DNA of 64,000 nt from Minisyncoccota bacterium. Lineage in GTDB: Bacteria; Patescibacteriota; Minisyncoccia; Phycocordibacterales; UBA9973. This document shows, one piece after another, positions 2,820 through 63,531 of this stretch. The notes beneath the pieces are model-generated. The model worked only from the letters and a program-made list of their open reading frames with translations, had not been told where the DNA came from and made no database searches. The stretch covers positions 28,990 through 92,989 of the forward strand of contig JALOQM010000004.1 in the NCBI GenBank assembly GCA_025453495.1, written 5' to 3'. The position numbers and the translations under genes were made by a program. Numbering within the stretch: position 1 is the first letter of the stretch; each line of letters starts with the position of its first letter.

Positions 2820-3446
2820 ATGTTTGGCCTAATGAAACAAGAAATCAAAATACTTAAAAAGTTACGTACACCGATACAGATTCAGGAATACCTTGATACA
2901 GTTCCTATAAACTTTGAGGAGCACAGAGAGACATATATGTCTGTGCGGCGGACACTACAAGAGAAAAAGATGCACTGTCTTGAAGGTGCACTTGTCGCAG
3001 CTACCGCACTCTGGCTACAGGGGCAAAAGCCACTTCTACTTGATCTCAAGGCCGACGGTGATGACGATCATGTCGTCGTGCTCTATCGGACAAATGGCTA
3101 CTTTGGAGCGATTAGTAAGACGAATCATGCAACACTACGCTTCCGTGATCCTATCTACAAGACACTTCGCGAACTTGCCCTCTCCTACTTCCATGAATAT
3201 ACCCATACAAAAAATGGCAAAAAGTGTCTACGCTCGTATTCCACTCGACCGTTTGATCTACGAACACTCGGACATGACTGGATCACGAGTGATGAAGATT
3301 TATACTACATCGCACAAGCAATTGATGATGCATCACATACAAGACTCTTTCCAAAACAGCAAGAGAAATATTTACGTAAAGCAGACCAGATGGAACGACG
3401 CGCGAACGCACTAACTGAGTGGCGTACATCTCGACGACGTGCCTAA
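2820..3446 (+). CDS. Hypothetical protein with papain-like (peptidase C39-like) Cys/His signature
   Basis: 208 aa. HCLEGALVAATALW (catalytic-Cys-like context) and DDDHVVVLY (His context resembling the C39 HFVVL motif). Divergent from the SET gene with only 29 bp between start codons. Confidence 0.4.
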   Translation: MFGLMKQEIKILKKLRTPIQIQEYLDTVPINFEEHRETYMSVRRTLQEKKMHCLEGALVAATALWLQGQKPLLLDLKADGDDDHVVVLYRTNGYFGAISKTNHATLRFRDPIYKTLRELALSYFHEYTHTKNGKKCLRSYSTRPFDLRTLGHDWITSDEDLYYIAQAIDDASHTRLFPKQQEKYLRKADQMERRANALTEWRTSRRRA

Positions 3447-4249: not shown

Positions 4250-6004
4250 TTATTGCTTACACACAAGCTCATTTATCTTTTTTGTTGTTGTGATATAGAC
4301 ATACCCTGTGCCTTCATTGAGCCCCCAAGAGCTAAGCACATCGGCTGTGTATGCTTCTTGAAAACGCTTGACTGCGGCATCAGTTGCAAGACCAAAGAAC
4401 CCTGTTGGTTGTATTGATAAGAAAGAATTTTTTAGCAAGAAGCTCTGTAACTTTGTAACCTCTGGACCTCTCGAACCAAGCCTCATATATGAAGTAAGAT
4501 ATGGTGCGCATGTATCTTGAGGTTCCACATATCCTGGAAGCTCTTTCGGATTTGTCGTAAATCCGCCAGCACCAGTATCAATCGGTGGAGGGGCTATACC
4601 AGTATCAGTTGGAGGTGTGACTAATGCTGGAGCAGATACTCCCTGTGCCATCGAGTCGCTATCTGCAGTAAAGCGAATTGTTTCTGAATTTGTGCCAGAA
4701 AGTCTGTAACCGATACCGGCAACAGTCAATGCGCCGTTAAGCATTTCGCCTTCACGAAGCGCGAGACCGACAAGCGAACCTGGACCATCTTCTCCAATTA
4801 CGACATCATTCATAAAATCGACATCAGTAATGACATAGTCAGTCACTCCAATAGTATTTGTTTTAACCGCTTTTACGACACCTTGTGTTGCACAAGCAGT
4901 TCCACTAACACAGCCCGAGGGACTAGTCGTCCATACAAGTGTATCAGCGACAACATCAGCCACAATTGACGGTGAAGCAACATAATCTAAATTTCCACCA
5001 TTTACACCACAAGTATGTACAGCTCGTAGAGTAAATGATTCATGGTCAGTGGTCGCATTATAAGATGCAAATGCAGGAGAAAAATCAATAACGCCATTAT
5101 CTGCTCTTACCTGAAAACTATTAGGTATAGTGGTAGCACCGCAATGGCTTGGAGAAATAGAGCCGAATTGCAGACTACCAGGAGAGCTACCATCAAGAAC
5201 AAGAGATACGACATCTGAATGATATCTTGTCGCGATATTTCCAAAACTATCATAAGCAGTAACCACGGGCTGTGTAGTCCACACCACACCACTTTGCACA
5301 TCACCATAAACTGGAGTCGGTGTCATGCTTGGTAGTGTAGTGAAACTAAGAGTTACTGCTTGACCTGGAATAATCGTAAAGGCATTATCGATAGCCTTAC
5401 CTGTAGAACCTCCACCCTTACCTGTTGCTGAATCATCAGATACAAATAATTCTTGCCCGATTATCCAAAGCTGAAGATTTCCGTCTTGTGAAGTAAAGCC
5501 ATCACCATCAAAAACAGCAGCAGTTTCAGGGTTGAAAATTATATTAAGAATACTAAAAGAAATTGTGTCTGAAACATCAACAGTACTTCCGTAATTAAAT
5601 GGAGCGGCAAGAGTGAGTTGTATTCTTGTACCTACAACTTCAACCAAAGAAACTTCTCGATCAGTACCATTTATAGAAATAAAACCACCTGAACCAATAT
5701 CTGATTGCACCACTTCTGTTGGATCAGCAATAAATGAACCATCAAGAGTAAATATATTTGGAAAATTAACAATAATCTTGGATGCTGTTCCAGTACTTGT
5801 TGTCGTATAAGATACTTCGTATTGCCCCGGTTCACCGACAATATCATCAGTACCAAGAGTTACTGGAGCGACTGTAGCAGTAGTTATTGATGCTTGCACC
5901 GAGTTCCGCCACACAAATCCACCCACAACAAGAGCAGTGATAATACCTACAATAGTGAGGGTATACACATTGTTGGAAATTTTTTTCTTGAGTATATTCA
6001 ACAT
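4250..6004 (-). CDS. Membrane-anchored cell-surface protein with C-terminal peptidoglycan-binding (PG_binding_1-like) domain
   Basis: 584 aa. N-terminal signal anchor, long Thr/Ser/Gly/Val-rich beta-type body. C-terminus LGSRGPEVTKLQSFLL...GFFGLATDAAVKRFQ matches the PG_binding_1 motif pattern. A terminator hairpin follows at 4195-4228. Confidence 0.6.
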   Translation of the reverse strand: MLNILKKKISNNVYTLTIVGIITALVVGGFVWRNSVQASITTATVAPVTLGTDDIVGEPGQYEVSYTTTSTGTASKIIVNFPNIFTLDGSFIADPTEVVQSDIGSGGFISINGTDREVSLVEVVGTRIQLTLAAPFNYGSTVDVSDTISFSILNIIFNPETAAVFDGDGFTSQDGNLQLWIIGQELFVSDDSATGKGGGSTGKAIDNAFTIIPGQAVTLSFTTLPSMTPTPVYGDVQSGVVWTTQPVVTAYDSFGNIATRYHSDVVSLVLDGSSPGSLQFGSISPSHCGATTIPNSFQVRADNGVIDFSPAFASYNATTDHESFTLRAVHTCGVNGGNLDYVASPSIVADVVADTLVWTTSPSGCVSGTACATQGVVKAVKTNTIGVTDYVITDVDFMNDVVIGEDGPGSLVGLALREGEMLNGALTVAGIGYRLSGTNSETIRFTADSDSMAQGVSAPALVTPPTDTGIAPPPIDTGAGGFTTNPKELPGYVEPQDTCAPYLTSYMRLGSRGPEVTKLQSFLLKNSFLSIQPTGFFGLATDAAVKRFQEAYTADVLSSWGLNEGTGYVYITTTKKINELVCKQ

Positions 6005-6146: not shown

Positions 6147-6542
6147 TTGCATAGAATTTCGGGGCATATTCTACGCATAAGTCTTGCGATTACCTTTATT
6201 TGGATTGCTAGTGTGATACTCAAATACCCAGAAGTCTGGGGTGAATATCTCAAGCCTTGGGCAATCGATCTCCCTCCCGCCTCCGTCGAAGCAACCATGC
6301 GTGCGACAGATATTGCTGATATCGTAATCGGCTTCTTGTTTCTTGTGCCGAGCATAGCGTGGGTTGCTGGTATTCTCGGTGTACTCCATATGCTTCTGGT
6401 TCTTGTGACATCGGGCATAACTGATATGACCGTAAGCAACATTGGACTACTTGGCGCGTCGGCTGCCATAGTCCTTGATTCACTTTCTTTTTTTATTCGA
6501 AAACGGCATAGTAGTAAAACTACTGCGACCCCCACCACATAA
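6147..6542 (+). CDS. Hypothetical small membrane protein
   Basis: 131 aa, three hydrophobic helices. Preferred over the antisense 6140-6577 ORF on hydrophobicity pattern only. Confidence 0.3.
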   Translation: MHRISGHILRISLAITFIWIASVILKYPEVWGEYLKPWAIDLPPASVEATMRATDIADIVIGFLFLVPSIAWVAGILGVLHMLLVLVTSGITDMTVSNIGLLGASAAIVLDSLSFFIRKRHSSKTTATPTT

Positions 6543-17930: not shown

Positions 17931-18369
17931 TGGTAATGGTATGAAAAATTATTTTTAATAGAGTGCACTAACGACCTTCACAAAAAATATAAGTGGGAAA
18001 GTTTGTGAAAAAATTTTTTAATGCATCTTCTGAAATAATTATCTCGCAAGAAAAAACTAAATACAATATTTTTTTTACAAAACTGTGGATAACTTTTTTA
18101 TTTTAGTAATGTGAATCATGAAAAAAAATTATTTACAAAAATATTTTTCATTTTCAAAAAAATAGTACCTATGCATTTTTATTTTTTACTTTTTGAAAAT
18201 TAAAAAACACTCGCGGAAATTTCCACGAATGTTTTTTAATTCATCTGCACTGTGAGCCGCAAGTGCGAGCTCCAACACAAATGCCTATGTGAGTGCAGTC
18301 GCGGCTCACAGTAGAGACGACTGCGCATACAGTGTAGCAAATAGCTATAAAATGTAAAAGATAGTCTAT

Positions 18370-19164: not shown

Positions 19165-19590
19165 GTTTTGAGCCAGATAGTTGCTCTTTGATGTATATCA
19201 AAGAGAGGAAAGTCCGAACACATAACGATTCAATTCGTATAGGTAATGGGTAATTCCCATACGGAGCAATCCGCGAGGTGCGAGCAGAGACGCTTGCAAG
19301 CGAAAGTGCGCAAGCGTCCCGACTTCGGTCGGGACGAGTTCTCAAGGTAACTTGAGAGGTGAAACGGCTAAATCCTTACCCGTGTGCAAGGCCGTGTTCC
19401 CCACTACTTTAAACAGTTATATGAATACTCTATGTAGTAATGAAATAAAAATTATCGCATACGCATACTCACATAAGTTTTTAAAGTAGTGGGGAAAGTG
19501 CCGCTTGAGGCCGACGGCAACGTCGGTCCCAGATAAATGACTATCGTCTGGGTAACCAGATACAGAATTCGGCTTATAGGCTCAAAACTA
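19165..19590 (+). ncRNA. rnpB: RNase P RNA (bacterial type A-like)
   Basis: Universally conserved GGAAAGTCCGAACAC near the 5' end and ACAGAATTCGGCTTATAG near the 3' end. P1 pairing gttttgagcc (19165-19174) with ggctcaaaac (19579-19588). Contains an AT-rich extended hairpin insertion (ccccactacttta...taaagtagtgggg, about 19377-19500). Terminator hairpin at 19596-19626. Confidence 0.85.
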
Positions 19591-19595
19591 ACATG

Positions 19596-22168: not shown

Positions 22169-22566
22169 GTATTCTTTAACCTAACTAACTCCTTTCGTCG
22201 TTTTTTCTAGGATTGTCTTATTATGTACTGAGTTTTTCTTTTCGCCTCCCGCTTTTTCTTGCATGCGGAGTCTGCCTAATAACTATCCTGCATGTTCAGC
22301 TGTAAAGCGAAATATACTCTTTTTGTAATTAATTACTTGTTACAGTTAGAGGCAGACAAGTCCTCGCAGCGAAGAAAGCGGAAATGCGTGAGTAATTCAT
22401 GCAAAAGCCAGAACCCTACCACTATGCACACTGCGCAAGCGAGTAGCGAGCCGTAGTAATTTTTCAGCAGAAAAATACGCGTGTGCATAGTGGTAGGGTT
22501 AAAACAAGAACACGGTATATTCAATAACTACTACATAGAAAACGATCATGAGAGTCACACGACTAT

Positions 22567-29481: not shown

Positions 29482-29966
29482 AAATACGCTTTATTGTAGC
29501 GTTTTTAGATAAAAGCTGATACTTGACTTTTAGTTATAAATACGACATAAAGTGGACGTAGCACATCATAATAAAATATCACCCTTCAAATATAACTCTA
29601 ATGAGACACCTCCTGATACTCCTGCTCATCTTCTCTGCAACAACCGCGTTCGCACAGAACCAGAAAACCATGCGCGTTGAAGAAGAAGCCTTCGTTATCA
29701 AAGAAATCCGGATCGCAACGAGTTGCTGAGATACCGCAACTGCGGTGACGAACGAACTTTGGTACAACGGCAACCAGCTCAACCTTTCCACCCGTTTCCA
29801 GTCCTACCCTGCACACGCTATCGCAGTAAGCAAAATGCAGTTCGTGATTATCGACGGTGTCCGTGAACTTGAAGTGACATGCACTGATCCGCTCGGCACG
29901 CACGTATTCTACTTTCTGAAACAAAACGTTGCGTACTTGCGGATAGGCTGAAAATCAATTTGAAGG

Positions 29967-29998: not shown

Positions 29999-30113
29999 TT
30001 TTCACTTAGTGAGCGAGAATGTGTTTTTGAAAAGCCTTGCAGAGCGCCTGGTGCGAGCAGAGAATTTTTCAACAGAAAAATATTATGCTTTTCAAAAACA
30101 TATTGAGTAGCTC

Positions 30114-63434: not shown

Positions 63435-63531
63435 TAAAACTAGAGTCTAGTGTCTAGGGGACTAGAGTTTAGTAACATACAAATACGTATAGATTTTTTA
63501 CTATACCCTAGACACTAACCACTACACTTTC

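Follow-up and report, generated by a model that had tools for sequence, protein, structure and literature searches.

A strand-specific hairpin element beside rnc and its relatives, a family of three-way junctions across Patescibacteria

The window analyzed here, a 64-kb stretch of a Minisyncoccota genome, carries the gene order L32, NusB/NUDIX, rnc and SMC-like ATPase, all on the minus strand. A protein identical to the RNase III encoded by rnc is found on a 178-kb JGI contig, and the relatives are named Paceibacterota or Parcubacteria. Just past the rnc stop codon lies a long hairpin element, here named el2, whose plus strand is antisense to rnc. Beyond it follows an intrinsic terminator, separate from el2, with a 15-bp stem, eight G-C pairs and a T-run; read on the minus strand, its core stem is followed by TTTTCCTT. 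The placement of el2 between a terminator and the rnc stop codon, given in a preliminary description of the locus, is borne out, as this terminator is real. El2 also stands as an object apart from it; the terminator lies outside the element, and the el2 fold is antisense to rnc. On the other side, a plus-strand open reading frame (ORF; 29601-29951), whose start resembles a signal peptide (MRHLLILLLIFSATTAFAQ) and which contains a single in-frame TGA (29727-29729), stops 14 nt short of the terminator. This makes a terminator common to converging transcripts plausible. The JGI record places a 108-aa minus-strand ORF over the same region that may be spurious; neither this ORF nor the plus-strand one has a Pfam match.

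The coordinates of el2 and of related features are listed in Table 1. The arms of el2 are 94% complementary, pair at 17 of 18 positions and form the closing helix, P1. The preliminary description had proposed an 18-bp stem with a single mismatch around a 51-nt loop. Its stem and geometry (18-nt arms, 51 nt between them) stand, with coordinates that were 1 nt low. There is indeed a single non-Watson-Crick position, G30021.T30101, but on the plus strand, and there only, it is a G.U wobble. The interior is no open loop: its 51 nt hold two further helices, P2 and P3. Folded as plus-strand RNA, el2 reaches -32.9 kcal/mol (z = -4.1), a value equalled by none of 200 shuffles, and the covariance model described below scores it at 60.7 bits on the plus strand versus 11.2 on the minus strand. 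El2 is a weaker member of its family, termed family 1 here (60.7 bits versus about 95 for the best), and the base of its P3 is degenerate. P1 measures 18 bp in el2, or 21-25 bp with a possible distal extension, and 30-45 bp in many members; the CGAG/GAG(U)A-type internal loop of the extension recurs in many family 1 members. Gene callers set spurious ORFs over family 1 elements; in the JGI record, for example, one of 33 aa overlies el2.

Table 1. Features of the rnc locus and related elements. Positions without prefix refer to the window; prefixed positions refer to other contigs.
Feature	Position	Strand	Basis or remark
rnc (RNase III), 231 aa	30114-30809	-	Pfam Ribonuclease_3 and dsrm
Intrinsic terminator, 20 nt upstream of P1	29965-29997		Terminator scan (plus-strand listing)
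P1 5' arm, AATGTGTTTTTGAAAAGC	30018-30035	+	Inverted repeat, model alignment; sequence variable among copies, pairing kept
P1 3' arm, GCTTTTCAAAAACATATT	30087-30104	+	Inverted repeat, model alignment
P2 hairpin, loop CTG	30038-30059	+	Model alignment; P2a and P2b covary in the family
P2a, TGC with GCA	30038-30040 with 30057-30059	+	Model alignment
P2 tandem G.A	G30042 A30043 with G30055 A30056	+	Model alignment
P2b, GCGC with GTGC	30044-30047 with 30051-30054	+	Model alignment
20-mer of el2, AATTTTTCAACAGAAAAATA	30063-30082		
P3, flanked by A / AU	30063-30083	+	Fold, model; the 'loop motif' of the preliminary description
P3 stem, 7-bp A/U	30064-30070 with 30075-30081	+	
P3 tetraloop AACA (A-N-Y-A)	30071-30074	+	
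Possible distal P1 extension, 5' side	30011-30017	+	MFE fold; predicted for el2
AGC with GCT, in possible extension	30012-30014 with 30110-30112	+	MFE fold
Tandem G.A, in possible extension	G30015 A30016 opposite G30105 A30106	+	MFE fold
Possible distal P1 extension, 3' side, GAGTAGCTC	30105-30113	+	Adjoins rnc stop codon 30114-30116
Sister copy, family 1	22412-22500	+	P1 20/20 bp; 61.2 bits
Sister copy arms	22412-22431 with 22481-22500		49 nt between
Sister copy 20-mer, AATTTTTCAGCAGAAAAATA	22458-22477		
Family 2 copy	L124:2309-2418	-	rnc-SMC spacer
Family 2 copy	L123:10714-10814	+	rnc spacer; opposite orientation, unrelated stem
tRNA-linked subtype	L030:1053-1273	-	
tRNA-linked subtype	L024:6515-6711	+	
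tRNA-linked subtype	L106		
tRNA-linked subtype	L107		

The sister copy folds as plus-strand RNA at -47.4 kcal/mol (z = -9.0). An element at 22414-22498 had been proposed to share the interior motif of el2 on a different stem, and this is confirmed: both copies hold the 20-mer, their stem sequences are unrelated, and neither stem sequence occurs a second time within the 64-kb window. The 20-mer, AATTTTTCA[A/G]CAGAAAAATA, matches twice in the window, both times on the plus strand, against 0.04 matches expected. With filters off, the covariance model finds exactly these two copies (61.2 and 60.7 bits), both of which were seed sequences, and no further window match above 18.4 bits. Long hairpins without the core of family 1 or of family 2 (see below) lie at 18241-18320 (26-nt arms, 28 nt between) and 63441-63524 (19-nt arms, 46 nt between). 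The RNase P RNA (19165-19592) carries a 100-nt long hairpin at 19397-19496 (31-nt arms, 87% paired, z = -6.4), owing to which the gene measures 428 nt versus the 367 positions of its model.

A scan with the 20-mer pattern AATTTTTCANCAGAAAAATA over one genome per species yields at least 120 loci. About 14 of them, from archaea and Bacteroidota rich in A+T and from an insect symbiont, look like chance matches; the remainder are Patescibacteria, namely Saccharibacteria, Paceibacterota, Nomura-, Kaiser-, Yonath-, Taylor-, Vogel- and Wildermuthbacteria, and Minisyncoccia. Members consist of a variable stem arm, CUUGCGAG, a short hairpin, GAGCACGAGG, the 20-mer, UCCGUGCUC and the second stem arm. 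The hairpin-element family that had been proposed from the window thus exists and far exceeds two copies, with a covarying fold: family 1 is a three-way junction common to more than 100 loci across Patescibacteria (CPR). Its elements are specific to Patescibacteria and measure 85-170 nt, with a P1 of 10-45 bp outside el2. P2 is a short hairpin with a 5'-GA/5'-GA tandem G.A between its lower and upper parts, and P3 is a 7-bp A/U-rich stem closed by an A-N-Y-A tetraloop.

The fold is carried by covariation. Across 31 pairs of P1, P2 and P3 in 66 aligned members, 88.6% of cells are paired, compared to 38-58% with slid partners, and double-change cells number 488, compared to 115-154 when slid; the observed values are reached by none of 500 shuffles. 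All 14 modelled pairs of P1 show double changes among the 66 sequences. The covariance model built from this alignment, whose members had been picked through the 20-mer, gives 114 matches over 100 sources. Several of these matches do not contain the 20-mer; compensating changes distinguish their P3 stems, and the loop is still A-N-Y-A (AAAAUCC-AGUA-GGAUUUU, AUUCGCC-AGCA-GGUGAAU, AAAAGCC-AGCA-GGCUUUU). As an independent check set we used 628 kb of contigs collected for another motif, in which the model has 15 matches, 13 of them distinct. None of these 13 members has the canonical 20-mer; 88.5% of their cells are paired versus 37-52% when slid, and double changes occur in 29 of the 31 pairs, including nine of the ten P3 pairs. 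Since this 20-mer-free set is equally well paired, the fold holds without selection bias. In some tRNA-linked members (L078, L106:4555-4635, L107), P2 is a second copy of the AAUUUUUC-ACCA-GAAAAAU hairpin, which therefore behaves as a module.

At either window copy and at five member loci, Rfam 15 has no family at gathering threshold, and permissive E-values return chance matches only, to leader, miRNA and terminator models. Known ribozyme classes and SRP, tmRNA, 6S and Y RNA were considered and rejected, as no resemblance was seen and Rfam, which includes them, gave no match. A full-text search found no published description of family 1, and papers beyond the searched literature may exist; the family is apparently unannotated.

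Which strand folds can be judged from isolated P1 mismatches flanked by three Watson-Crick pairs on each side. On the model strand these comprise 26 G.U versus 5 A.C (p = 2e-4). The ratio is 7:1 in copies co-directional with both neighbors and 6:0 in copies antisense to both. As the G.U excess appears in both of these gene settings, the element's own plus strand is, by this pairing signature, the folding strand, regardless of its neighbors. This strand is probably read out as RNA, although folded single-stranded DNA can likewise accommodate G.T wobbles and tandem G.A pairs, which counts against the RNA reading.

Family copies are not tied to particular genes. Clustering of 834 flanking ORFs reveals no linked protein family, the largest cluster covering 8 of 108 loci, and the idea of a linked protein was dropped accordingly. 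Orientation relative to the neighbors is random (++28, --26, +-19, -+12), so that a cis-leader or 3'-UTR element was likewise rejected. A sigma-70 promoter of the element's own was rejected as well: -10-like boxes show no enrichment (9% of copies upstream versus 12% on the opposite side), and no promoter-like site lies near el2 or the sister copy. Where co-directional genes follow one another, elements tightly fill the intergenic gaps in either orientation. An example is L086, where three successive gaps between plus-strand genes (DEAD helicase, ABC transporter, rhodanese-like) hold copies at 3339-3424 (+), 5319-5405 (-) and 6392-6477 (-); those flanking the ABC transporter are near-identical and inverted, with different P2 hairpins. 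Five adjacent type-A pairs are all divergent, and about 10 nt separate the outer stems of the pair in L081. With no promoter, gaps filled either way and abutting divergent pairs, half of the contexts offer no evident route to plus-strand transcription, which speaks against the RNA reading. Viral contigs contain neither the core pattern nor the two arms searched, one window arm and a 22-nt arm of L013. A phage-borne element was rejected on the missing core pattern. A guide or spacer role was discarded too: neither window arm has a second copy in 64 kb, the searched arms have no viral-contig match, and the at least 120 loci offer no convincing arm matches except to adjacent tRNA ends.

Those tRNA ends define a subtype, mostly in Saccharibacteria, that immediately follows a tRNA gene of the same strand. 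The 3' end of that tRNA, from the T-loop onward, is repeated exactly over 19 nt at the end of the element (CGAATCCCTCCGGCTCCGC; CAAGTCCCTCATCGCGCAC), which looks like the trace of integration at the tRNA. An upstream same-strand tRNA is found for 6 of the 114 model matches, compared to about one expected. From this same-strand position, co-transcription of the subtype with the tRNA would follow.

Copies are kept in some places and gained or lost in others. Orthologous copies in two different Saccharibacteria (L045:3274-3361 and L065:3215-3299), whose shared flanks are 73% identical, differ by at least eight pair-keeping double changes and two wobble shifts, with no pair-breaking change. At the level of sequence comparison, these compensatory differences at a fixed locus offer direct evidence that the fold is under selection in place. 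Compensatory differences in P2 are also seen between paralogues in one genome. By contrast, the unit AUAGUCU..GAAAUG-core-CAUUUC..AGAGCUAU lies beside unrelated genes in four genomes, and beyond it the stem extends with locus-specific complementary sequence, different each time. An 80-nt difference, comprising apex and one arm, separates L136:8862-8941 from L146:11528|11529, strain-level relatives with 100% identical flanks. A whole 106-nt hairpin, bounded exactly by a stop codon and the following ATG, is present in one species (L134:6937-7042) and missing in its relatives, as at L240:3954, where flanks are about 90% identical. These strain- and species-level indels suggest that such hairpins are being gained and eroded at present. 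We considered that one arm might be made by copying the target flank and rejected this, as neither arm is present at the empty sites of L030, L125 and L126. The 80-nt strain indel does not qualify as arm copying either; it looks like a partial deletion because its arms already differ by three transitions.

The rnc 3' regions of relatives had been expected to keep the loop while changing the stem, and they do not. In four relatives (RNase III 73-78% identical), only 1-24 nt lie between rnc and the SMC-like gene, with no model match, which indicates that el2 is a lineage gain and no ancient part of the rnc 3' region. The nearest relative, L124 (80% identical), shows the reverse of the expectation: a long hairpin sits at the same site, on the strand antisense to rnc, with a similar stem and a different conserved core. 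In stem and 5' flank this hairpin can be aligned to el2, 11 of 16 pairs being identical, the G.U included, while its interior reads GUCUGGUUGA-[hairpin]-ACCCGAGGAC. The spacer of L124 folds at -67.6 kcal/mol (z = -4.9), and that of L123 has z = -6.7. As a whole, a long hairpin occupies the rnc 3' site in three of eight related genomes (the window, L124 and L123). Since rnc and the SMC-like gene almost touch in the four other relatives, the spacer is an insertion hotspot. Between the same two genes, L124 also carries a DUF4325 gene (2576-2938) convergent with rnc; the 116-aa plus-strand ORF of the window was considered as its homologue because of its matching position, and no homology was found. 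Near the rnc-SMC region of L126 lies a Y1 (IS200-like) transposase gene (L126:13446-14190), flanked by two simple hairpins, CTCCGCTAGG-N5-CCTAGCGGAG, that are unrelated to families 1 and 2.

The interior of the L124 hairpin defines family 2, whose core is present at a minimum of 120 metagenome loci (L128-L247) and absent from the 64-kb window. Its architecture resembles that of family 1, with a variable long stem, a conserved tandem-G.A core and a covarying apical hairpin; double changes occur in 21 of 29 pairs. No Rfam match was found for family 2, and the two families occur on shared contigs.

Among known systems, REP/REPIN sequences and Correia-type repeats are the closest. REP/REPINs, with their RAYT transposase, are dispersed intergenic one-strand hairpins that occur in both orientations, with tens to hundreds of copies in a genome and turnover by gain and loss. 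Family 1 shares the dispersed intergenic placement, the one-strand hairpins, both orientations and the turnover. In REPs, however, stems are conserved and types are confined to a species or genus, whereas the stems of family 1 vary around an apical core that is phylum-wide. Family 1 also has no GTAG motif and no linked RAYT gene; the two window stems are neither related to each other nor recurrent in 64 kb, no recurrent protein family lies near the elements, and L126, with its Y1_Tnp gene, has no family 1 match. Correia/NEMIS, ERIC, BOX and RUP repeats measure about 100-150 bp and yield long RNA hairpins on transcription; those of Correia/NEMIS are cut by RNase III. All of these are lineage-restricted, with target duplications and terminal inverted repeats that are conserved, whereas family 1 has no conserved ends and a covarying three-way junction as its center. 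Family 1 does not behave as a MITE, as its arms differ among copies and no direct repeat flanks el2 except GAG, which belongs to the G.A motif; direct repeats are confined to the tRNA-linked subtype. Relative to REP/REPIN and Correia-type repeats, family 1 is inverted, with a conserved center and variable stems, and it is conserved far more deeply than either.

Other comparisons are more distant. Intervening sequences of rRNA are sporadic long stem-loop insertions, as are family 1 elements, and are removed when RNase III cleaves their stem; the 100-nt hairpin insert in the RNase P RNA of the window is a comparable case. In contrast to family 1, intervening sequences lie inside rRNA helices and have no conserved apical core common to several phyla. 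The orphan structured RNAs raiA, ROOL, GOLLD, OLE and HEARO are all in Rfam. Family 1 resembles them in being known from conservation and covariation only and in its protein-binding-type motifs, but such RNAs are usually single-copy or tied to a gene or element, whereas family 1 has several to many copies per genome, random orientation and no gene tie. Sites of the attC type bear RYYYAAC and GTTRRRY boxes at their ends around a variable center and form arrays beside intI; el2 ends in AATGTG.../...CATATT, conservation lies in its center, and copies occur singly. Intrinsic terminators have a short G+C-rich stem, a loop of 3-8 nt and a T-run immediately behind the stem; el2 is no terminator, with 51 nt between its arms and GAGTAGCTC next, and the terminator of the scan lies outside it. 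A retron, which would carry a reverse transcriptase gene immediately downstream, is not indicated, as the Pfam calls within 10 kb on either side of rnc include no reverse transcriptase and no cluster of reverse transcriptases lies near members. Kink-turns consist of a C stem, a 3-nt bulge, tandem sheared G.A and an NC stem; P2 has the tandem GA/GA, but the bulge measures 0-1 nt in family 1, and in family 2 it measures 2 nt. TIGR arrays, found in CPR and phages, have palindromic stems and short conserved motifs and lie beside a Tas gene encoding a Nop-domain protein; their units hold unpaired spacers between C (RUGAUGA) and D (CUGA) motifs, which occur twice in the loop of the hairpin (PMC12045711). 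They are like family 1 in their occurrence in CPR, in palindromic stems that flank a motif unit, and in G.A-type (kink-turn-like) motifs. Family 1 elements, in contrast, depart from TIGR units in each defining trait: they are solitary, have no Tas gene nearby (the Pfam list around rnc contains no Nop-domain gene), and are fully paired in their variable part; neither TGATGA nor CTGA of the TIGR or box C/D type occurs in the el2 interior (30036-30086).

We tentatively favor a reading in which family 1 is a structured, protein-binding RNA module with an RNase III-cleavable stem that is gained and lost like a mobile element. The plus strand would be made as RNA, and the P2/P3 core would serve as a platform for protein binding. 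Tandem G.A pairs, ANYA tetraloops and GA-rich internal loops, the last seen here in P1, are typical of protein-binding RNAs. The long P1 duplex could set the module off from its carrier transcript and act as a natural substrate of RNase III, an enzyme that needs double-stranded RNA of about two helical turns, or some 20 bp and upward, and cuts with 2-nt 3' overhangs. The element would act independently of the adjoining genes, with el2 distinct from the rnc terminator, and copies would spread, be lost and perhaps swap cores in the fashion of mobile elements. Expression is the weak point of this RNA reading, in that a promoter was not found and many copies lie antisense to all of their surroundings.

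Somewhat unlikely, yet the strongest of the other accounts, is that family 1 is selfish, non-autonomous mobile DNA. A recombinase or transposase with its gene elsewhere would recognize the strand-specific fold, either as single-stranded DNA or as an intermediate of transposition; conserved cores would be cassettes that land in or replace a hairpin apex, and RNA would be incidental. Much of the distribution fits: presence and absence differ between relatives, hairpin parts come and go between strains with 100% identical flanks, and the AUAGUCU..core..AGAGCUAU unit recurs in unrelated contexts. Near-identical 39-nt cores are shared by Saccharibacteria and Paceibacterota, the rnc sites of the window and L124 combine similar P1 and flank with different cores, and family 2 repeats the architecture on shared contigs. 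Intergenic gaps filled in both orientations without a promoter, and the exact 19-nt tRNA repeats resembling an integration site, point the same way. Against this, the elements are not linked to any transposase, integrase or reverse transcriptase, their terminal repeats are not conserved, and target duplication is missing from type-A copies. Orientation is untied to gene direction, a proxy for replication direction, and viral contigs have no matches. Furthermore, compensatory changes in place preserve the fold of orthologous copies, and the compensatory P2 differences among paralogues of one genome argue for selection on each copy.

A more speculative and rather improbable proposal is that the cores are exchangeable cassettes homing into hairpin apices, or else subunits of an abundant CPR-specific ribonucleoprotein. 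If true, the former would be a structure-targeted mobile element new to bacteria and CPR-wide; the latter would have RNA subunits loaded from many dispersed, promoterless genes.

We consider it quite improbable that el2 is a cis-acting hairpin of the rnc 3'-UTR, in which the P1 duplex would form in the rnc mRNA, be cut by RNase III and so lose its protective terminator, leaving rnc autoregulated. The 18-25-bp duplex would form whichever way the core points, el2 lies between the rnc stop codon and the terminator, and related genomes repeat a long hairpin at this site; RNase III of E. coli does autoregulate through a stem in its own mRNA. Yet the spacer is missing altogether in four relatives, unrelated genes adjoin more than 100 members of the family, and the conserved strand-specific core lies on the strand that is missing from the rnc mRNA. 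Such a role is possible at most as a local side effect of P1 and leaves the family unexplained. Least probable by far is a double-stranded DNA site or cruciform for a DNA-binding protein, which the 20-mer, a near-perfect and operator-like palindrome (ATTTTTC-NNNN-GAAAAAT) highly conserved in the first scan, might suggest, but this is largely refuted by the P3 covariation, since the compensating stems (AAAAUCC/GGAUUUU, AUUCGCC/GGUGAAU) point to a folded strand and away from a sequence-specific duplex site, only one of the strands tolerates G.U, and the 20-mer conservation is partly a selection effect.

For the protein-binding RNA module and the mobile-DNA account alike, the covariance model and more than 120 examples make the readings testable, and families 1 and 2 are two new models that could join RNA family libraries. 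Patescibacteria make up a large share of bacterial diversity and have genomes of about 1 Mb with very little spare DNA. To our knowledge, almost no non-coding RNAs have been described from them. Given such small, gene-dense genomes and the deep conservation of one fold across classes, at several to many copies per minimal genome that occupy entire intergenic gaps, family 1 is either useful to, and needed by, the cells or an unusually successful parasite.
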